DNA from: Clostridia bacterium
GTDB lineage: Bacteria > Bacillota > Clostridia > Oscillospirales > CAG-272
Assembly: GCA_017518975.1 (NCBI GenBank)
Contig: JAFWTH010000140.1
Location: forward strand, 23,467-87,466
Length of the DNA stretch: 64,000 nucleotides
Reading direction: 5' to 3'
Under the pieces are notes generated by a model. That model was given only the letters and a program-made list of their open reading frames with translations, made no database searches and was not told where the DNA came from. Below, piece by piece: positions 4,251 through 39,876 of this stretch; the stretch's first letter is position 1; each line of letters begins with the position of its first letter. Both the position numbers and the translations under genes were made by a program.

Positions 4251-5287
4251 CGGGCGCTGATAAGAACGAATCATCCCGAGTGATCCGCGGAATGATAACG
4301 AAAGGAGTAGGCGGCCTTTACTCCGTCGCTCCGTTTCCCGGCGAGTCTGCGGAAGACGAGCTTCTCTGTTCCGCGCGCGGGAAATTCCGTCTTGACGGGA
4401 TAATCCCGCTTCCCGGCGACGACGTTACGGTAGAACCGGATACGGAAGCGGGCGTTGCTTCAGACGATCCCCGTTTTGTGATAACCAGTGTCAAAGAAAG
4501 AAAAAACGTTCTTATAAGACCGCCTCTTTCCAATCTGACTTATATGTTTGCGGTCATACCGTCATGCCGTCCGAGGCCTGATCTTCTGACAGCGGACAAA
4601 CTCCTCGCTATTCTTGAGCATGCGGGGATAGAGCCGATCGTTGTCGTTACCAAATCCGATCTTGACCCCGCGTCGGCGGAAGAACTCAGGCACATATACG
4701 CAACGGCGGGCTACCGGACGTTCGTCCTCAGCGCAGTGACCGGCGAGGGATGCGAAGACTTGACGGCTTTTCTTGCGGAAGTCGCCTCAGAAGCCGAAAA
4801 AGCGAATGGCTCGGTCCGAGCCGCTTTCGCGGGGGTTTCCGGGGCAGGAAAATCTACTTTGCTTTCAAAACTCTTCCCGACTCTATCCCTGAAAACGGGA
4901 TCGGTCAGCCGAAAGACCGAGCGCGGAAAGCATACGACAAGATGCACCGAGCTTTTCTCCGTCCCGGTGGGGGACAAGAACATATACCTTGCAGATACGC
5001 CCGGCTTTTCAATGCTCGACTTTACTCGTTTCGACTTCCTTCCGGAAAAAGATCTCCCAATGTGTTTCAGGGAGTTTTGTGACTGCCTTGGAAAGTGCAG
5101 ATACACGGGCTGTACCCACGTCCGGGAGGAAGGTTGCGCCGTCATCGAAAAAATCGGTCGCGGAGAGATTGCGAAAAGCCGCCACGACAACTACGTCGCG
5201 ATACGCGATGAGATCAAAAAAAAGCCGGCCTGGAAAAGAGATAAAGAAGAAAAAGAACGCACAAAAAGAAAAGAACCGCGTGTATAA
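4247..5287 (+). CDS. rsgA: Ribosome small-subunit biogenesis GTPase RsgA
   Basis: Circularly permuted GTPase motifs VVTKSDL and GVSGAGKSTL are present, with DTPG and the C-terminal zinc motif CRYTGCTHVREEGC. An alternative start is ATG 4292. Confidence 0.9.
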   Translation: MTGADKNESSRVIRGMITKGVGGLYSVAPFPGESAEDELLCSARGKFRLDGIIPLPGDDVTVEPDTEAGVASDDPRFVITSVKERKNVLIRPPLSNLTYMFAVIPSCRPRPDLLTADKLLAILEHAGIEPIVVVTKSDLDPASAEELRHIYATAGYRTFVLSAVTGEGCEDLTAFLAEVASEAEKANGSVRAAFAGVSGAGKSTLLSKLFPTLSLKTGSVSRKTERGKHTTRCTELFSVPVGDKNIYLADTPGFSMLDFTRFDFLPEKDLPMCFREFCDCLGKCRYTGCTHVREEGCAVIEKIGRGEIAKSRHDNYVAIRDEIKKKPAWKRDKEEKERTKRKEPRV

Positions 5288-5298
5288 TACGCGGTTCT
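5262..5298 (+). terminator. Rho-independent terminator of the rsgA operon
   Basis: A 10-bp stem (AAGAACCGCG / CGCGGTTCTT) with a 9-nt loop is followed by TTTTCGTCTTCTGTCTTTT. It overlaps the rsgA stop codon. Confidence 0.7.
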
Positions 5299-5454
5299 TT
5301 TCGTCTTCTGTCTTTTGAAACTGAATAAAGTATCGTGTGAGCGCAGGAAAACATAAAGCTATGTTTTCCTATGCGCATTGAATCCTTTCGGCGTGAAACG
5401 GCATTGAAGTCTTCACGTTTCATTCCTGCCGCGCCTGCGGCACGGGGGATTCGT

Positions 5455-5563
5455 CCGGTTGCTCGCGAAGCAACCGGGACAAAATACCGCGTGAAATGTC
5501 TGCTTGCTAAGCAAGCAGGATAAAGATTTCTTGAATGGGATGACCCATTTCAAGAAATCTTTA
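5455..5563. repeat. Three consecutive perfect or near-perfect hairpins in noncoding DNA
   Basis: H1 5455-5477 is CCGGTTGCT/AGCAACCGG. H2 5500-5518 is CTGCTTGC/GCAAGCAG. H3 5521-5563 is a 19-bp stem (TAAAGATTTCTTGAATGGG / CCCATTTCAAGAAATCTTTA) with one bulge. No convincing ORF covers them. Confidence 0.6.
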
Positions 5564-5671
5564 CGGAGTGTTCCGTGACGTTTTTCAGGAATATGAAATA
5601 TATTTCTTGCCGGATTTGCCGGGCACGTGGTATTTTACTGCGCACTTGGGGTCGTGTCGCGGTAACTTCAG

Positions 5672-5697
5672 GAATTTCGCGCTATCGCGCGAAATTC
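5672..5697. repeat. Palindrome GAATTTCGCGC-TATC-GCGCGAAATTC
   Basis: This is a perfect inverted repeat. Its half-site contains ATTTCGCG, the unit that is tandemly repeated at 12939-13000. Confidence 0.6.
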
Positions 5698-5747
5698 GGG
5701 CGGACAGCGGTAGCGAACGAATACGAAAACGACATACTGTCCGCACA

Positions 5748-5818
5748 GCTCCCTCGGTCACGGGGCGGTTCTGACAGTCCCCCGGACTGTCATTCATTTC
5801 CGCCCCGCTTCGAATCCC
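5748..5818. repeat. 71-bp direct repeat, copy 1 (internally structured)
   Basis: Identical to 5898-5968, with a 150-bp offset. It contains nested inverted repeats, GGGGCGG...CCGCCCC enclosing TGACAGTCC-CCCG-GACTGTCA, and ends in CTTCGAATCCC. Confidence 0.8.
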
Positions 5819-5897
5819 CTATCCTTTCATTGAGGATGGGATGGGATTCGATTCTCGGTCGCGCGGTGTCAGCCGTCGCAAAAATACGACGGCTGAC

Positions 5898-5968
5898 GCT
5901 CCCTCGGTCACGGGGCGGTTCTGACAGTCCCCCGGACTGTCATTCATTTCCGCCCCGCTTCGAATCCC
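5898..5968. repeat. 71-bp direct repeat, copy 2
   Basis: Identical to 5748-5818 by direct comparison. It is preceded by the hairpin 5868-5897 (GTCAGCCGTCG / CGACGGCTGAC). Confidence 0.8.
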
Positions 5969-5977
5969 ATTTTCAAT

Positions 5978-6031
5978 CTCTCCGAATAACAACAGCGGGC
6001 GATAACTCGCCCGCTGTTGTTATTCGGAGAG
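5978..6031 (-). terminator. 24-bp perfect hairpin immediately downstream of, and overlapping, the tRNA-Ser 3' end
   Basis: CTCTCCGAATAACAACAGCGGGCG / CGCCCGCTGTTGTTATTCGGAGAG with a 4-6 nt loop. Its right arm includes the acceptor-stem 3' strand of the tRNA fragment. There is no strong U-tract, so it may be a processing or terminator structure. Confidence 0.5.
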
Positions 6032-6077
6032 GATGGGATTCGAACCCATGTGGGGTTGCCCCCAAACGGTTTTCAAG
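6025..6077 (-). tRNA. Orphan 3' half of a tRNA-Ser(UGA) gene (anticodon loop to discriminator); the 5' half is absent
   Basis: The reverse complement reads CTTGAAA-ACCGT-TTGGGGGCAACCCCACA-TGGGTTCGAATCCCA-TCCTCTCC-G. That gives an anticodon loop with UGA, a long variable arm, a T-arm and the acceptor 3' strand. Sequence to the right of 6077 cannot form the anticodon stem, D-arm or GGAGAGG acceptor 5' strand. Confidence 0.6.
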
Positions 6078-6162
6078 AAACCTGGGGTTTGTCCAGGATA
6101 GTCCCTGTTAGTCACGTCGCATCGCCGATTTTACCACAAAATTGGCCATTTTTAAGCATTAT

Positions 6163-33527: not shown

Positions 33528-33878
33528 ATGATGAGAAAAGAAGTGAAAGATGATTTGGAAATCATCTGCCGGATGATTCGAGATGCGGTCGATGTAAGTG
33601 CAATATACCTTTTTGGTTCCTATGCTTACGGCCTCCCGAACAAAGACAGCGATTACGATTTGTGCGTTGTTATTCCCGACTCTGATATGCGCCCGGTGGA
33701 TGCGATAAAGAAAATACGACGCGCAATATATCCCGTGCAATCCAAGCCGATGGACGTTGTCGTGTATCACAGAAGCAGGTTTATGGAGCGGCAGCGCTCA
33801 GCTTCGCTGGAACGAAAAATAGCAAGAGAAGGGGTGCTTCTGTTTGAACAGGAAGAACTTGAACCACGAATGGTTTAA
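33528..33878 (+). CDS. Minimal nucleotidyltransferase (MNT-type, Pol-beta superfamily), orphan with no HEPN partner
   Basis: LFGSYAYGLPNKDSDYDLCVV is the GS...DxD NTase motif. 116 aa with RBS GAGGAG. The usual downstream HEPN gene is absent. Confidence 0.7.
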   Translation: MMRKEVKDDLEIICRMIRDAVDVSAIYLFGSYAYGLPNKDSDYDLCVVIPDSDMRPVDAIKKIRRAIYPVQSKPMDVVVYHRSRFMERQRSASLERKIAREGVLLFEQEELEPRMV

Positions 33879-34053: not shown

Positions 34054-35445
34054 ATGCAGACCGCAACGGAACGAATGAAGCAGATCGAAAAAGAACTCGC
34101 AGGATTGCCGATCGGATATATATCGAAGAAGACGATCAACGGCAAAGAACGGTTTTACCTTCAGTGGATGGAGAACGGGAAACTGAAAAGCAAATATATC
34201 AAAGCAACCGAATATGACGAGGTATTACGTCAGGTGGAAAAACGAAAGAACCTTCAGGCTGAGCTCAAAGAGTTGAAGGGGACTCCGGAAGGAGTTCGCG
34301 AAACGAACCTCAGAAGAAAGGCGGTGAGGAACATGACGAGTATTACCGGGGCAGTTATGTCGGAAGACCGGGTGGTAGCGACCGTCAAAAACGGAGATAT
34401 CATCGAGAGCGACGACAGGCTGCTCCCGCTTTACCTGAAAAGAACAAGAAACGTCGAAGGATGGCTCGCATCCCGCGCCATCGATGAGCACAGGACCAAT
34501 TCGCGTCTTCTGAAAAAAGCTCTGCGTCTCCGCACCGCCGACAATGCACAGACTGCGCTGGCGGTCAACGCCGCCACCGTGACGGACAGATACTGGTTCA
34601 GACCTGAGGGATCGACCGCAAAATACGACGATATCCGGTTCCGTGAAAACTACTTTGACACCCTCGCTCTTCGCGGAGATCCCAACGGATTCTCCCATAA
34701 ACCGTCGCGTACCCCCGAGCTGACCAACACCGGAAGCTTTGAAAAGTGCTGGCGGCTGATCGACGGGGAGTGGTGGATGTACAAGAGCGGGAACCGGGAC
34801 GAGTATTTTTCCGAGCTCTTCATCTGCCGACTCGGAGAAAAGCTCGGGCTCGATATGGCTCACTATGAAATGGACGACGGGTACATCCGGTCGAAGAACT
34901 TCGTCGGAGGAACGGATTTAAACTTTGAGCCCATCTCCTCCATCATGGGCGATAACGATGATCTCGACGACTGCTTCAGGGCTATATCGGGTCTTTCGCC
35001 CGAGCTCGCCGTACAGTATTTGATGATCGTCTGGATGGATACCATATGCTACAACATGGACCGGCACACCGAAAACTTCGGATTCCTGCGTGACGTTCAC
35101 AGCGGAGAGATAGTCAAGATGGCTCCGAACTACGACAACAACATCGCGCTGATCTCAAGAGGGTATCCCGCAGACGTCTCCCGGGAACACGACGGGCTGA
35201 TCCGTTTCTTCCGGGAGTTCCTGCAAGGTGATCCGGATGCGGCGAAAATGTACAGAGAAATGAATCTCCCTGAGATAACTGAAAGCATTATCGATGAGTG
35301 TATTAACGAGATCCCCATAGAGTGCGACGGAGAGTTCGTGAAAAACTTCATCCTGAACGGGCAGAGGATCGTCGGCGATATAATCAGGATGAGCGATTCC
35401 CCGGAGATCGAGGGCGAGGACCAAACGTTCAATCTGACGATGTAG
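34054..35445 (+). CDS. HipA-like Ser/Thr kinase-fold protein with a novel N-terminal region, ends ...QTFNLTM
   Basis: The C-terminal half has ...CYNMDRHTENFGFL... (HipA_C D-x-H-x-x-N catalytic loop) and ...MAPNYDNN... (the counterpart of the HipA aPaYD motif). No HipB-like gene is adjacent. Confidence 0.6.
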   Translation: MQTATERMKQIEKELAGLPIGYISKKTINGKERFYLQWMENGKLKSKYIKATEYDEVLRQVEKRKNLQAELKELKGTPEGVRETNLRRKAVRNMTSITGAVMSEDRVVATVKNGDIIESDDRLLPLYLKRTRNVEGWLASRAIDEHRTNSRLLKKALRLRTADNAQTALAVNAATVTDRYWFRPEGSTAKYDDIRFRENYFDTLALRGDPNGFSHKPSRTPELTNTGSFEKCWRLIDGEWWMYKSGNRDEYFSELFICRLGEKLGLDMAHYEMDDGYIRSKNFVGGTDLNFEPISSIMGDNDDLDDCFRAISGLSPELAVQYLMIVWMDTICYNMDRHTENFGFLRDVHSGEIVKMAPNYDNNIALISRGYPADVSREHDGLIRFFREFLQGDPDAAKMYREMNLPEITESIIDECINEIPIECDGEFVKNFILNGQRIVGDIIRMSDSPEIEGEDQTFNLTM

Positions 35446-35470: not shown

Positions 35471-35509
35471 ACGGACGTTGTGAGATATCACAGCGTCCGT
35501 TTTTGTTTT
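35471..35509 (+). terminator. Rho-independent terminator after the HipA-like gene
   Basis: 13-bp stem ACGGACGTTGTGA / TCACAGCGTCCGT (one G-U pair) followed by TTTTTGTTTT. Confidence 0.65.
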
Positions 35510-35520
35510 GGAGGATTATT

Positions 35521-35781
35521 ATGACACGATATATTTATCCGCAGAATCTCAAGGCCACGGCAAACCTGTGGCTCTGGAGTCTGCGGGATTTCGCTATTAT
35601 GGGCGTCGCCGCCCTTCTCTCCATAGTGGTTCTGGTGGAACTGCATCTGTTGATCCCCGCGGCCGCCACGCTCTGCTATGGATTTCTTACGATCCGGATG
35701 GATGATACGACGATTCTCGATTTTATCCGATATGCGGGTCGGTATTTCATTACTACACAACAGTATTACGAATGGAGGTGA
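35521..35781 (+). CDS. PrgI/VirB3-like small membrane protein
   Basis: ATG 35521 follows GGAGG. 86 aa with a central hydrophobic hairpin (FAIMGVAALLSIVVLVELHLLIPAAATLCYGFL). It sits upstream of the VirB4-type genes. Confidence 0.55.
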   Translation: MTRYIYPQNLKATANLWLWSLRDFAIMGVAALLSIVVLVELHLLIPAAATLCYGFLTIRMDDTTILDFIRYAGRYFITTQQYYEWR

Positions 35782-36422
35782 TCATCGTGCCCAAAATGGA
35801 CAAGCAGTTGAAACAGCCTGAACAGAGTAAGCGGCAGAAAAAAAGAAAAGGGCGGTCTGTCCAGGAGTTCATCGGCGTGAAAACGTTTACCAAATATGGT
35901 CTCATGACTCAAAAGGGAGAGCTCCTTCTCTATCTTGTCAGCCCGACCAATATCTCGGTACTGTCCCACGTCAACATCGAGATCAAGATCCGCCATCTTA
36001 TGATGGTTCTGTCTTCGATCCCCGATATTGAGATCACCTGTACGGACTCCTCCGAATGCTTTGACGATAACAAAGAGTATCTCCGCAAAAGACTTGACTG
36101 CGAGCAGAATCCGAAGGTCAGAAAACTCCTTAAAAAGGATATAGAGTTCCTTGATAACGTGCAGGTTGAAATGGCGACCGCCCGTCAGTTCCTCTTTGTT
36201 GCCAGAGTCAAAGCCTCCAAGGATAAGCAGGTCTTTGACATGGCCAACCGCGTGGAAAAGATCATCTCCGAACAGGGCTTCGAGGTCAGGAGAATGCGGA
36301 AGGGGGATATAAAGCGATTCCTCGCTTTGTATTTCGAGGCAAGCATGAACGGAGAGCAGATGCCAGACGTCGACGGTGAACAGTTCTTTGAGGTGGACGA
36401 AGATGAAGAAAGCGAAGAATAA
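35772..36422 (+). CDS. Stand-alone protein resembling the N-terminal (non-ATPase) domain of Firmicute VirB4/PrgJ-type proteins
   Basis: ...SVQEFIGVKTFTKYGLMTQKGELLLYLVSPTNISVLSHVNIEIKIRHLMMVLSSIPDIEITCTDS...ARQFLFVARV... follows the pattern of VirB4 N-domains. There are no Walker motifs. Confidence 0.45.
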   Translation: MEVIIVPKMDKQLKQPEQSKRQKKRKGRSVQEFIGVKTFTKYGLMTQKGELLLYLVSPTNISVLSHVNIEIKIRHLMMVLSSIPDIEITCTDSSECFDDNKEYLRKRLDCEQNPKVRKLLKKDIEFLDNVQVEMATARQFLFVARVKASKDKQVFDMANRVEKIISEQGFEVRRMRKGDIKRFLALYFEASMNGEQMPDVDGEQFFEVDEDEESEE

Positions 36423-37389
36423 CCGGAGGCGTTTTCTTGTCATTCTCTGTTTTCTGCTGTTGGCGGCAGCGGTTTTCTGCGGAATTGAAATCCTTCGGGA
36501 GCATAACAGCCGCAAAAAGGATATAGAGAATTTCGCCGAGCTTTCGAAACTGGCAGAAATACCGGATTCGGGTGAATCGAGGTATATCGCGGATAAAGAA
36601 ACGAAAAGCGAAGATGACGCCGATGCGAACAAGTCGGAGGGATCCGGAGTCCATTCAGGCTCGATTTTCCATGACGTCCCTCTTCTTATCAGTATGAACA
36701 GCGACTGTATTGGATGGCTCTCTATCGAGAAAACCACTGTGAACTACCCGGTTATGTGCACACCGGGGTGGCCTCAGAAGTATCTTCGAATGAATTTCTA
36801 TCAGCAGTGCAGTGACTCAGGCGTCCCGTTTCTGGATTCCCGCTGTACTCCCGACAGCGACAACCTCATTATCTATGGGCACAACATGAAAAACGGAACC
36901 ATGTTCTCCTCTCTCGTGGAGTATGTGAATGAGGGACGCATTCCTTCAACCCGGCGGATCCTGTTCGAAACTGAAGACGGAGCGCATGAATTCGAGATCA
37001 TTGCGGTCACTGTCGTTGATAAGTCGGACTCATGGTACAGTTTTATCAACGCGGGATCGGAAGACGGATTCAATGAAACTGTGCAAAGGATTATCAGTAA
37101 AGCAAGTATCTGGAACGGTGAGGCCCCCCATTACGGCGACCGTCTTCTGACACTGTCCACATGTTATGGCAGCAGGAACAGTCGCCTGATTATCATTGCA
37201 AAGGAGGTAAACGCAATTGGCATTCGGCAAACCGAAAATGATGACTCCTGCACAGATGGAGAAGATCAGGGCGAAGGATTTCTTCGACATGATCCTGCCC
37301 GGGTCCGTGAAGTTTTTATCCGACCACTATGTTGTTGGAGACAGTTACCGATCCGTGTGGGTCATCCGGGAATATCCCCCGTCCACTGA
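36403..37389 (+). CDS. srtB: Class B sortase (the C-terminal ~60 aa probably read through into duplicated virB4 sequence)
   Basis: ATG 36403 follows GAGGTGGA. The N-terminal TM anchor is followed by ...IIYGHNMKNGTMF... (catalytic His) and ...LLTLSTCYGS... (catalytic Cys). The homology-like part ends near IIIAKEV (about 37210), and the frame then stays open to 37389. Confidence 0.7.
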   Translation: MKKAKNNRRRFLVILCFLLLAAAVFCGIEILREHNSRKKDIENFAELSKLAEIPDSGESRYIADKETKSEDDADANKSEGSGVHSGSIFHDVPLLISMNSDCIGWLSIEKTTVNYPVMCTPGWPQKYLRMNFYQQCSDSGVPFLDSRCTPDSDNLIIYGHNMKNGTMFSSLVEYVNEGRIPSTRRILFETEDGAHEFEIIAVTVVDKSDSWYSFINAGSEDGFNETVQRIISKASIWNGEAPHYGDRLLTLSTCYGSRNSRLIIIAKEVNAIGIRQTENDDSCTDGEDQGEGFLRHDPARVREVFIRPLCCWRQLPIRVGHPGISPVH

Positions 37390-37435
37390 AGAACAGGCCA
37401 TTCTGTCACAGCTCACTACATGTACAGCCATATAG
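37217..37435 (+). pseudogene. Truncated duplicate of the virB4 5' end (72 codons)
   Basis: A TTG start follows AAGGAGG. MAFGKPKMMTPAQMEKIRAKDFFDMILPGSVKFLSDHYVVGDSYRSVWVIREYPPSTEEQAILSQL is almost identical to residues 1-65 of the intact VirB4 at 38044. 37234-37414 duplicates 38061-38241. Confidence 0.75.
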
Positions 37436-37441
37436 AAAAGG

Positions 37442-37469
37442 TTGACAAACGAATCAAACTTGGTACAAT
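37442..37469 (+). promoter_or_regulatory. Consensus extended -10 sigma-70-type promoter (TTGACA-N16-TGgTACAAT)
   Basis: -35 TTGACA at 37442-37447, TG at 37461-37462, -10 TACAAT at 37464-37469. It lies inside the 37420 ORF, so the real NTase CDS must start downstream. Confidence 0.65.
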
Positions 37470-37503
37470 AGATGTAGATACAGAAGATAGGGGGGTGACA
37501 ATC

Positions 37504-37905
37504 TTGAAGACAACAGTGTCAGCCGAGAAAAAGACGCGCGTGTTTCCCGTTGTAACAAGTGGAGATGACACAATAAAGTATGTCTTTCCTACTAAGCAAA
37601 GAGCTGCGCAGAAGGCGATTGATCTTGCAAAAGAAGATGAACGAATAAAGAGATTGATTGTCTTTGGCAGTGCAGTGACAATGCGTTGCGGTATGATAAG
37701 CGATATTGATATTGCCATTGATGCCCCTGATATAAGCGAAGATGAGTTTATGAAAATGGCTCGGAGATTTTACCGGGAGATCGACTCCGAAGTAAACGTG
37801 ATCCACTACAACGACATCCACAACAAACTCTTGCTGAAGGAGATAGACGAGAAAGGCGTAAATATCTATATTTGCGAAAATGAAGGCCCGCAGATGACTA
37901 TGTAA
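37504..37905 (+). CDS. Minimal nucleotidyltransferase (second MNT-type copy), ends ...EGPQMTM
   Basis: TTG 37504 (or GTG 37495) follows AGGGGGG. VFGSAVTMRCGMISDIDIAIDAPD is the GS...DxD NTase motif. Confidence 0.6.
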   Translation: MKTTVSAEKKTRVFPVVTSGDDTIKYVFPTKQRAAQKAIDLAKEDERIKRLIVFGSAVTMRCGMISDIDIAIDAPDISEDEFMKMARRFYREIDSEVNVIHYNDIHNKLLLKEIDEKGVNIYICENEGPQMTM

Positions 37906-37930
37906 AATCTAAAGACAAAAATGAATATCG

Positions 37931-37967
37931 GCCGCTTTGTTTCAAAACGCAAAGCGGCTGTTTTTTT
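37931..37967 (+). terminator. Rho-independent terminator after the second NTase gene
   Basis: GCCGCTTTG / CAAAGCGGC stem followed by TG-TTTTTTT. Confidence 0.7.
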
Positions 37968-37975
37968 GCCCTTCT

Positions 37976-38027
37976 GCATCGCAGAATTGCATCGCAGAAT
38001 TGCATCGCAGAATGGCATCGCAGAACG
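37976..38027 (+). repeat. Four tandem 13-bp repeats, GCATCGCAGAA(T/C)(T/G)
   Basis: GCATCGCAGAATT x2, then GCATCGCAGAATG and GCATCGCAGAACG, ending 8 nt before the GAAGGAGGG RBS of virB4. Confidence 0.8.
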
Positions 38028-38043
38028 GCAGAAGGAGGGAAAA

Positions 38044-39876
38044 ATGTTTAAACCTAAAGTGAAAATGATGACTCCGGCACAGATGGAGAAAATCCGAACG
38101 AAAGATTTCTTCGATATGATCCTGCCCGGGTCCGTGAAGTTTTTATCCGACCACTATGTTGTTGGAGACAGCTACCGATCCGTGTGGGTCATCCGGGAAT
38201 ATCCCCCGTCCACTGAAGAACAGGCCATTCTGTCTCAGCTCGCAGACAGAAGCGGCGTGACGCTCCGTATCTACCACCGTCTGGTGGAGAGCATGGAGCA
38301 AAGGAAAATAATACAGAACGCTACCAGGAGAAACAAGCTCAAAAGCGGAGGAAATGACGTCAACGAGACCATTGAAGCCGAAGGAAACCTTCAGGATGTG
38401 ATCGAACTTCTCGCCAACCTTCGCAAAAACAAAGAACCGCTTCTGCACTGCAGTGTGTTCATTGAACTGAAAGCGAGAAATATGGACGCGCTGAGAGAAC
38501 TGCAAAGCGATATCGCGATGGAACTGACAAGATCAAAGATCTCCGTCGACAGACTGACCTTGCGTCAGAAAGAGGGATTTTTGTCCGTAATACCGACGGG
38601 ATATAACCAGTTCGGGGCGCAGTATGAACGAGTTCTTCCCGCGTCCAGTGTGGCAAACCTTTATCCGTTCAACTTCTCAGGAAAGACTGACCCCCAGGGA
38701 TTGTATATCGGAAGAGACAAGTACGGGACGAACATCCTCGTTGACTTTGACCGCCGTGCGGAGGACAAGACCACAAGCAACGTTCTGATTCTCGGAAACA
38801 GCGGTCAGGGTAAGAGTTATCTCCTGAAACTGATCCTGACCAACATCCGCGAATCGGGCAAAGCAATCATCTGCCTTGACCCTGAGTCAGAGTATGAAGA
38901 ACTCTGTAACGCTCTCGGCGGTTGCTACATCGATTTCATGAGCGGCGAGTATACCATCAACCCGCTGGAACCGAAAGCGTGGACAGACGTCGTCGAGGAT
39001 ATCGACGCCACCACGCCGGAAGCATTCAAAAAAGTCACAAGGTTGTCACAGCACATCGCATTTCTTAAAGATTTCTTTCGCAGCTATAAGGACTTTTCCG
39101 ATACGCAGATCGATACCATCGAGATTCTTCTCTCCAAACTGTACGCACGGTTCGGTATTACAGACACTACCGACTACAGCACGAAGAAACCCACGGACTT
39201 CCCCATCATGGAAGACTTCTACAAACTGTGCGAAGAAGAGTTCTACAGTTATGACAGACAGAGGAAGTATCTCTACACGGAAGACACTCTGCAGGACGTA
39301 TGCCTCGGAATCCACTCCATGTGCGTCGGGGCCGAGTCCAAATATTTCAACGGACACACCAACATCACGGACAGCCATTTCCTTGTGTTCGGCGTGAAAG
39401 GCCTGATGGATACAAACAAGCGGCTCAAGGACGCCATGCTATTCAACATTCTGTCCTTCATGAGCAATCAGCTTCTCGGGCAGGGCAACACAGCCGCGAG
39501 CATCGACGAGCTCTATCTGTTTCTTACCAATATGACGGCAATCGAATATATCAGGAACGCAATGAAGCGCGTCCGTAAAAAAGACTCCTCGATAATTCTG
39601 GCAAGCCAGAACATCGAGGATTTTTTGATTCCGTCCATCCGGGAATTCACGAAGCCGCTGTTCAGCATTCCTACTCATCAGTTCCTGTTCAACCCTGGCC
39701 AGATAAATCCGAAGGAATATATGGACGCTCTGCAGGTCGAGCCGTCAGAGTTCGAACTCATCAAATACCCCGAAAGAGGTACATGCCTGTTCCGGTGCGG
39801 TAACGAGAGATATCTTCTGCAGGTCATCGCCCCCGACTACAAGGCCGCCCTGTTCGGGAAAGCCGGAGGTCGGTGA
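38044..39876 (+). CDS. virB4: VirB4-family conjugation ATPase
   Basis: ATG 38044 follows GAAGGAGGG. The ORF-track extension to 37921 runs through a terminator and the tandem repeats. Walker A is LILGNSGQGKSY, the Walker B-like motif is IDELYLF, and ...IILASQN... is present. The N-domain pattern is FFDMILPGSVKFLSDHYVVGDSYRSVWVIREYPP. Confidence 0.85.
   Translation: MFKPKVKMMTPAQMEKIRTKDFFDMILPGSVKFLSDHYVVGDSYRSVWVIREYPPSTEEQAILSQLADRSGVTLRIYHRLVESMEQRKIIQNATRRNKLKSGGNDVNETIEAEGNLQDVIELLANLRKNKEPLLHCSVFIELKARNMDALRELQSDIAMELTRSKISVDRLTLRQKEGFLSVIPTGYNQFGAQYERVLPASSVANLYPFNFSGKTDPQGLYIGRDKYGTNILVDFDRRAEDKTTSNVLILGNSGQGKSYLLKLILTNIRESGKAIICLDPESEYEELCNALGGCYIDFMSGEYTINPLEPKAWTDVVEDIDATTPEAFKKVTRLSQHIAFLKDFFRSYKDFSDTQIDTIEILLSKLYARFGITDTTDYSTKKPTDFPIMEDFYKLCEEEFYSYDRQRKYLYTEDTLQDVCLGIHSMCVGAESKYFNGHTNITDSHFLVFGVKGLMDTNKRLKDAMLFNILSFMSNQLLGQGNTAASIDELYLFLTNMTAIEYIRNAMKRVRKKDSSIILASQNIEDFLIPSIREFTKPLFSIPTHQFLFNPGQINPKEYMDALQVEPSEFELIKYPERGTCLFRCGNERYLLQVIAPDYKAALFGKAGGR

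Follow-up and report, generated by a model that had tools for sequence, protein, structure and literature searches.

A duplicated virB4 5′ end brackets a chimeric insert with a solo nucleotidyltransferase gene in a clostridial conjugative element: a probable recombination scar

Cargo hotspots and mosaicism between elements are known in integrative conjugative elements (ICEs). Orphan antitoxins are enriched on conjugative elements, and a counter-defence role against the toxin-antitoxin systems of hosts or rivals has been proposed for them (Samuel et al., 2024, PMC11541004). Phages act in the same way, as exemplified by anti-DarTG1 (PMC11825919). Among antitoxins of the minimal nucleotidyltransferase (MNT) type, MntA requires its GSX10DXD motif for antitoxin activity (PMC7641770). 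Here we describe a locus of a Clostridia bacterium in which a solo MNT-type nucleotidyltransferase (NTase) gene stands between a sortase gene and virB4 of a conjugative element, bracketed by two direct copies of the virB4 5′ end. The locus, about 37217-39876, belongs to a 64,000-nt stretch (the window, a name used below for the whole stretch) taken from contig JAFWTH010000140.1 of assembly GCA_017518975.1, and all of its features given below are on the + strand. The structure is in all probability a recombination scar, in which a chimeric insert occupies a junction of the kind called E-type below, between duplicated virB4 5′ ends. As such, it is a clear but fairly ordinary case of cargo acquisition by a conjugative element.

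The left copy of the repeat (37234-37414) and the right copy (38061-38241) align locally without gaps over 181 nt with 9 mismatches, at offsets 15, 30, 34, 36, 37, 42, 54, 111, and 174. A repeat search over the window returned 37229-37414 against 38056-38241 (186 nt, 94%). The mismatches are skewed, with 7 in the first 55 nt vs 2 in the last 126 (Fisher p = 0.0037), in agreement with an earlier note on this DNA, which had described 181-bp direct repeats with a more diverged first ~50 bp. A repeat of such length and identity cannot have a chance origin. The left copy corresponds to virB4 codons 6 to 66 (nucleotides 18-198), and the right copy lies inside the intact virB4 (38044-39876), which has an ATG start and encodes a VirB4-like conjugation ATPase of 610 aa. 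The open reading frame (ORF) that contains the left copy (37217-37435) has the Shine-Dalgarno (SD) sequence AAGGAGG and a TTG start, and consists of 66 VirB4 codons and 6 filler codons (72 aa). This 72-codon ORF is a truncated virB4 relic, and the right copy opens the working gene. Lineage-specific characters are common to both copies, for example AAAATGATGACTCC where relatives read AAAGTGCTGACGCC.

For comparison, a set of 80 species-representative loci (L001-L080) was used, with VirB4 proteins 85-98% identical in amino acids to that of the window. In a plasmid search (PLSDB), the closest VirB4 was just 47% identical (Clostridium estertheticum), and no annotated close relative was found there. 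Two kinds of junction upstream of virB4, labeled in this analysis, can be distinguished among the relatives. In the E-type junction, the upstream gene (sortase or a 211-aa protein) stops at the virB4 start or extends past it, and in the B-type junction, found in 23/80 loci, a conserved leader of ~95 nt lies ahead of virB4. Most of the 80 relatives have an uninterrupted sortase-virB4 junction, and neither the NTase nor a second virB4 5′ copy is present in any of them. The earlier note had reckoned with relatives that share the arrangement and keep the left copy as a conserved gene, and none of the 80 does so.

A cassette-less junction was sought in JGI metagenomes with a pattern that can be matched only without the cassette, and this search yielded L103, which is 93.2% identical to window positions 35502-37414 and 95.8% identical to 38061-39285. 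The uninterrupted junction that the earlier note had predicted for a cargo insertion thus exists in L103, as in most of the 80 relatives. The upstream junction of the left copy is identical to that of L103, whose intact virB4 start, AAGGAGG-N9-TTG GCA TTC GGC, is the same as in the left copy. Since this start is shared, the left copy preserves the native virB4 initiation region of the sublineage. The L103 start and the ORF listing together bear out the claim that the left copy keeps the original ribosome-binding site and TTG and runs for 72 codons. The left copy is also 86% identical to the virB4 5′ end of the closest relatives (L001-3). These comparisons show that the cassette-bearing state is derived and that the uninterrupted E-type junction is ancestral in this lineage. 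L103 was also considered as a deletion product of the repeats, and this was rejected: its single copy matches the right copy at 7/7 sites (offsets 15-54) and is joined to the left-type upstream junction, so that the crossover, improbably, would have had to lie in the initial 15 nt of homology. The suggestion that the cassette is lost by recombination between the repeats found no further backing, since no such derivative was seen at the contig level.

The 646-nt insert (37415-38060) begins with 26 nt of filler (37415-37440), delimited by the end of the right-copy homology at 37414 and by the beginning of homology to L090 at 37441. A short-query blastn search for the source of the filler gave chance matches only. 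The following 429 nt (37441-37869) are derived from a HEPN-MNT operon and comprise a promoter, the 5′ untranslated region, and MNT codons 1-122. This segment is 78.6% identical in DNA to positions 5903-6330 of L090, a chromosomal MNT gene with its upstream region, after which a HEPN gene follows. The promoter is of sigma-70 type with an extended -10 (TG) (37442-37469; TTGACA-N16-TGgTACAAT, 11/12 positions), and it is kept in L090 as TTGACA-N16-TGaTATAAT. The solo MNT-type NTase ORF (37504-37905; TTG start, 133 aa) closes with a chimeric C-terminal tail, 11 in-frame codons for ICENEGPQMTM plus the stop (37870-37905). The remainder (37918-38060) is a borrowed part of a B-type leader with the terminator, the SD, and ATG plus five codons (MFKPKV), and it joins the E-type virB4 between AAA and ATGATG. 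The leader 5′ half (37918-37975) was recognized by nhmmer against a leader profile built from 18 relatives (E = 2.4e-5), by a terminator scan, and by its fold. Within it lies the terminator hairpin (37929-37960), with a 12-pair stem, 7 G-C pairs, and an 8-nt loop, and with a U-tract of seven T at 37961-37967. The anti-SD CCCTTCTGC (37969-37977) begins within the leader 5′ half, and 13-nt tandem repeats of TGCATCGCAGAAT occupy 37975-38025 (3.9 copies, TRF score 95, 97% matches). The new SD AGAAGGAGGG and the ATG of virB4 (38030-38046) are homologous to ...GGCAGAAGGAGGAAAAATG of leader-bearing relatives. All parts named in the earlier note, that is, the promoter, the NTase gene, the terminator, and the 13-bp repeats before a new ribosome-binding site and virB4, are therefore in place. 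However, the cassette is not self-contained as claimed there: the composition shows a chimera of at least four parts, namely the filler, the promoter and MNT gene without HEPN, the borrowed 11-codon tail, and the borrowed virB4 leader.

Both flanks of the insert are E-type. Its origin is indicated by the left-copy differences common to the window and L093 (NCBI GCA_016295045), a cassette-bearing variant that retains every joint at 4% DNA divergence. These differences (offsets 30, 34, 42, and 54) are 4/4 synonymous in the virB4 frame, and the same four are non-synonymous in the sortase frame. The probability of four synonymous differences in a row is at most ~0.006 with a generous synonymous fraction of 28% (the measured one is 17%). 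Thus, they arose in a working virB4 allele and not in a decaying copy, so that two alleles took part, which points to illegitimate recombination between related elements. The likeliest route would be that two related, co-resident elements underwent unequal or illegitimate recombination. One element would have given the sortase gene and virB4 nucleotides 1-198, and the other the remainder of virB4 together with the cassette and the leader. The four new joints, all within 646 nt, would also be compatible with serial template switching. Recombination with a related element had been suggested in the earlier note, and it gains from the right junction, which is the B-type of 23/80 relatives, and from the presence of E-type L001 and B-type L011 in one metagenome-assembled genome (MAG; contigs CAMMMX010000009 and CAMMMX010000011). 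Such co-resident related elements give ample opportunity for inter-element recombination. The flanks are mosaic, as VirB4 is 98% identical to that of L001-3 and the sortase just 62-65%. Co-residence is also documented in the cultured Acutalibacter caecimuris M00118, which carries at least five copies (loci L041, L046, L059, L063, and L064).

After the duplication, gene conversion between the two copies may have taken place, to judge from the distribution of variants: GGATCC is found in both L093 copies and GGGTCC in both window copies and in L103, and the window mismatches at offsets 15, 30, 111, and 174 are not present in L093. Two points weigh against the recombination scar. The nearest MNT source is just 79% identical in DNA and the filler has no match, leaving the donors only partly identified, and more than one order and number of recombination events would fit the structure.

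Among the other explanations of the duplication, it is improbable that the left copy is a functional gene for a 72-aa VirB4 N-terminal peptide, for instance one that regulates the type IV secretion system (T4SS) or helps to assemble it. The native SD and TTG are kept, the ORF is intact in both sublineages, and the four older differences are synonymous in the virB4 frame; however, the allelic origin would explain that pattern just as well. Since the window and L093 split, change in the left copies has looked near neutral (~2 synonymous and 2 non-synonymous), and the ORF ends in 6 arbitrary filler codons and has no free-standing homolog in the 80 relatives.

Decidedly improbable, too, is that the duplication was selected because the sortase and virB4 genes overlap, in which case only a duplicating insertion would keep both frames whole. 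The class-B-like sortase ORF (36403-37389; Pfam Sortase PF04203, E = 7e-14, residues 115-278 of 280 tested; NCBIfam srtB-like 97.5 bits, under the cut-off) belongs to an open frame that spans 36376-37389 in the ORF listing, with no stop ahead of the left copy. The left copy had been placed directly behind the sortase gene, but the sortase ORF instead reads through to 37389 in another frame. Its catalytic domain ends at ~37213, and its last 58 codons traverse the left copy out of the virB4 frame. An overlap of this kind is likewise found in L001-3 (near 5139-6161), and L103 (near 1715) shares the junction sequence. The duplicated segment ends 25 nt past the sortase stop, and the virB4 SD lies in the sortase coding sequence, as would be expected if both frames had to be preserved. 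However, the sortase domain is complete before the overlap (the Pfam match reaches residue 278/280), most relatives end the sortase at the virB4 start, and all overlap differences are non-synonymous in the sortase frame, which argues that the sortase tail is unconstrained. As an observation on its own, the sortase of the sublineage overprints ~57 first virB4 codons, and the end in most relatives is at the virB4 ATG (TAATG).

Integration by a dedicated mobile mechanism, whether as a transposon, as an integron-like cassette, or as a small circle inserted in Campbell fashion, is very improbable. Direct repeats do flank the insert, and the sortase-virB4 slot holds differing cargo among the relatives (HipA_C-like genes in L011, L012, and L015, and a gene for a 634-aa protein in L071). 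However, neither terminal inverted repeats nor a recombinase is present within the insert or next to it, and an 827-bp circle of such content presupposes the duplicated structure. A duplication of 181 bp far exceeds the target duplications made by transposases. A transposon with target-site duplication, expected to show 2-15 bp, inverted repeats, and a transposase, was rejected on this length and because neither of the latter two is found in 37415-38060. An integron-like cassette was rejected as well, since a repeated attC-like site is missing: the sole boundary-like motif is the virB4 leader, which occurs once per locus, upstream of virB4 only, and therefore provides no repeated cassette boundary.

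The recurrence of the structure bears on its reality. Cassette-bearing contigs were found via exact-protein look-ups, at DNA identities of at least 99.3% in 8 ENA samples, and with 2 NCBI assemblies included, the identical arrangement is present in independent assemblies. The same inter-copy differences (8-9) recur in comparable contigs, and the gene order is repeated on a 27.9-kb contig of GCA_016648615. Four 13-nt repeat units are present in all nine same-element contigs, and the aligned L093 likewise has four. None of the 11 contigs encoding the identical upstream 211-aa protein is a cassette-less version; two of them break within the repeat, as short-read assemblies do at repeats. Although the repeat does interrupt short-read assemblies (the contigs L099 and L100 stop, and L087 starts, within the left copy) and related elements co-occur in single genomes, an assembly or binning artefact, in which a chimeric contig would join two related elements, is scarcely credible given the same arrangement and copy differences in all these samples and assemblies, contig names that suggest more than one assembler, and the retention of all joints in the 4%-diverged variant.

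In the recombination scar, as the reading retained here, the translation-initiation region of virB4 has also been swapped. The virB4 product has the Pfam domains P-loop_TraG, AAA_10, and DUF87 and matches VirB4-like NCBIfam models with E = 1.3e-91 and 4.4e-50, below their equivalog cut-offs. Its gene is accompanied by those for a TrbL-like protein, a cell-wall hydrolase, a MobL relaxase, and a T4SS coupling protein, so that a VirB4/TraC-type P-loop ATPase is found in a conjugation context. The terminator ahead of it has the form of an intrinsic one, a GC-rich hairpin with a U-tract, predicted in both the minimum-energy and the centroid fold. The earlier note held that the cargo had left virB4 behind a terminator. 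The terminator is indeed there, but it was not made by the cargo: it is homologous to the leader of 23/80 relatives (e.g., L011 5906-6006; window equivalent 37918-38043), and thus a terminator before virB4 is usual in a large part of the family.

In the relatives, the leader can form two mutually exclusive structures. The invariant 5′ strand GUCGUUUUGC pairs with the proximal strand to make the terminator (93% of cells paired). Alternatively, GUCGUUUUGC pairs with a distal strand UCUGCAAAACGAC adjoining the SD in a 13-pair helix (96.8% paired), which in B-type relatives reads GUCGUUUUGCAGA : UCUGCAAAACGAC. This long-range helix covaries, with 12 compensatory cells at 4 pairs and a score that 0/500 shuffles reached. 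One fold therefore combines the terminator with an anti-SD/SD hairpin that sequesters the SD, and the other has the long-range helix with the SD free. Two-state energies, calculated in four relatives, lie within ~8 kcal/mol, and the long-range fold is the minimum-energy one in 2 of the 7 relatives folded. The window leader is derived in two respects: its terminator stem has been made perfect by T-to-C changes, and its distal-strand region is enlarged by the 13-nt repeats. These repeats lie at the site of the leader hairpin of relatives (its loop and 3′ strand), and B-type relatives are without them. Sub-threshold chance matches were all that Rfam returned for the leader and repeats (Fluoride riboswitch, E = 0.29; mir-244, E = 0.16).

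The earlier note had further supposed that virB4 needs either read-through or a promoter in the repeat region. The first part is retained here: virB4 would be expressed by read-through of the conditional terminator in the B-type leader, not by translational coupling to the sortase, and read-through would possibly be aided by the strong MNT promoter 560 nt upstream. The second does not, since a scan for sigma-70-like promoters found none on the + strand of 37906-38043; the best repeat-derived pair by eye is TTGCAT-N15-CAGAAT (~7/12 positions). Weighing against such expression, thermodynamic modelling favours the terminator/SD-sequestered state in the window by ~11.6 kcal/mol, so that the level of virB4 expression is uncertain. 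The 13-nt repeats were also considered as decoys that free the virB4 SD, and this gained no support, as the predicted SD accessibility is 0.23 with 1-4 units vs 0.28 with none. In L093, the virB4 start (~835, equivalent to window 38044) is TTG and not ATG, and codons two to four differ too.

The cargo itself can be assigned to a family. The NTase matches the Polbeta family PF18765 of Pfam (E = 1.6e-11), its AlphaFold2 model has a mean predicted local distance difference test score (pLDDT) of 90.1, and the top Foldseek matches of this model in the PDB are the MNT antitoxins 8xeo, 8xeh, and 6m6v (E = 2e-5 to 1e-3). All three sources thus indicate the minimal pol-beta NTase fold of an MNT antitoxin, and the GSX10DXD motif, read from the translation, is intact as FGSAVTMRCGMISDIDIA. 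The homologs with inspected context that are closest, at 84%, 75%, and 74% amino acid identity, all have a HEPN gene of PF05168 directly behind and overlapping them (HEPN genes at L090 6329-6730, L092 6335-6763, and L094 991-1425), and therefore the NTase is the MNT half of a HEPN-MNT pair. Its own ORF is followed by the terminator, not by a HEPN gene, and tblastn with the three partner HEPN proteins found no HEPN gene in the 64-kb window (best E = 0.77). Only 1 non-synonymous change against 6 synonymous ones separates the NTase from that of L093, a pattern that suggests purifying selection and hence a gene kept by selection.

By analogy with described cases, the solo NTase probably serves as an orphan antitoxin in counter-defence. 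Expressed from its constitutive promoter, a solo MNT would most likely neutralise HEPN partners encoded by the host, by the recipient, or by rival elements. Several observations weigh against this role. NTase residue 98 (37795-37797), within SEVNVI, is Asn, whereas D stands there in at least 90% of the 51 homologs aligned. DVDLV of the SO_3165 MNT lines up with this position, and Asn at the near-invariant Asp of SEVDVIHYN is also found in the variant lineage P0001/L093, with N or H in a few of the 68 homologs collected. The third acidic residue (h[DE]h motif) reportedly has a catalytic role in the active site of pol-beta NTases, and from the substitution, catalysis may be impaired. The score against NCBIfam MntA_antitoxin is 34.4 bits vs an equivalog cut-off of 60, and no conserved RX4-6H motif is seen in the partner HEPNs (PF05168; L090, L092, and L094). 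According to PMC7641770, a toxin-antitoxin role had yet to be validated for this HEPN class, and the function of the NTase is entirely inferred. Elsewhere in the window, a second MNT-like NTase (33528-33878; 116 aa, NCBIfam MntA 45.6 bits) ends in …EPRMV, and downstream of it lies a gene at 34054-35445 for a DUF6788 and HipA_C-like kinase (463 aa, ending in …FNLTM).

The C-terminal tail of the NTase is foreign to its family. Homology to MNT proteins stops at ...KGVNIY, and ICENEGPQMTM takes the place of the usual ...VKR end; the other 67 NTase homologs end in ...YVKR or similar, except for P0001, which is of the same element. In the model, confidence is low in the tail (pLDDT < 50, residues 128-133). 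The nearest DNA match to the tail is the 3′ end of the HipA_C-like gene of L012 (IAEDYGPKMTM), which occupies the sortase-virB4 slot just upstream of the leader. Comparable ends are found in HEPN proteins, ...DEPQMDL in L092, which has an ICE-like context, and ...DAPKMTIQA in L094, a 2.2-kb contig, and the chromosomal L090 HEPN is without such an end. The tail could therefore come from a HipA-like gene or, equally simply, from an internal HEPN deletion in an ICE-borne MNT-HEPN pair.

An acidic stretch with a short Met-rich end is present in 15 of the 31 + strand genes of the element (window 13450-49545), among others at the ORF ends 17495, 18352, 19383, 25269, 26387, 35445, 37905, 41857, 42135, and 43070, in forms such as …IDMGGM, …GPVMGM, …FQGMTM, …GFGMTM, …SPGLQM, and …GPQMTM. 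About half of the accessory proteins of the element thus carry it, and none of the core transfer proteins (VirB4, coupling protein, hydrolase, relaxase, and VirB6-like protein) does. The MTM tail had been described as specific to this element, but its form is found family-wide: in the window and the 80 loci, [ML][STQEN][ML]-COOH ends 110/2466 + strand vs 5/3041 − strand ORFs, and acidic residues make up 29% of the 17 residues before the tail end vs 10% in the background. The polyvalent-protein paper holds no description of the motif, and the T4SS-signal literature searched offered nothing specific. It is a speculative and rather unlikely idea that the tail is a T4SS substrate-recognition signal and that the fusion made the formerly cytoplasmic MNT an injected effector disarming a HEPN-type defence of the recipient. 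The tail-fused MNT would then enter recipients ahead of or together with the DNA, and a secretion-signal role would explain why the tail was retained in frame on the MNT.

With the ancestral state and partial donors at hand, the locus shows how cargo can be gained inside an essential operon without loss of function, and how sloppy inter-element recombination duplicates the 5′ end of an essential gene and swaps its translation-initiation region. It also provides a solo MNT-type antitoxin as a counter-defence candidate in gut Clostridia. Two family-wide leads emerge beside it, the covarying two-state RNA leader of virB4 and the C-terminal tail of accessory proteins, which bear on the regulation of Gram-positive conjugation and on possible exports of the secretion system. 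The leader RNA and the tail motif are more novel leads than the recombination scar.

How does the locus compare with the systems known so far? Like the MntA/MNT antitoxins of type VII HEPN-MNT (HepT/MntA) systems (8xeo, 6m6v, PMC7641770), the window NTase has the fold (target-normalised TM-score 0.81-0.83; root-mean-square deviation 1.6-1.7 Å between 8xeo and the model) and an intact GSX10DXD motif, and its close homologs are encoded directly upstream of overlapping HEPN genes. Unlike them, it has no HEPN partner in the cassette or the 64-kb window, has N for the third-motif D and an extra 11-residue tail of element type, and falls under the NCBIfam cut-off, and the PF05168 partners of its homologs differ in being without the conserved RX4-6H. 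With the orphan antitoxins of conjugative elements and phages (PMC11541004, PMC11825919), it has in common that a gene of an antitoxin family is carried by a mobile element without the toxin and under a strong promoter of its own. However, it sits in a type IV secretion operon (sortase-virB4), not in a demonstrated leading region, is a candidate by sequence, and is fused to a tail common to accessory proteins of the element.

The virB4 leader resembles Gram-positive attenuators and leaders that sequester the ribosome-binding site, as it combines a terminator and an anti-SD/SD hairpin with a covarying, exclusive long-range helix. It differs from them in that the alternative partner is downstream of the terminator, not upstream, and in that it matches no ligand, leader peptide, or Rfam family; in the window, it is further modified by the perfected terminator stem and the 13-nt repeats. 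Finally, as in the cargo hotspots and mosaicism of ICEs, one slot receives different accessory genes and the flanking genes are mosaic in identity. A clean homologous replacement would leave no duplication or chimeric insert, whereas the exchange in the window left a 181-bp duplication of the 5′ end of an essential gene together with a chimeric insert of multiple parts.

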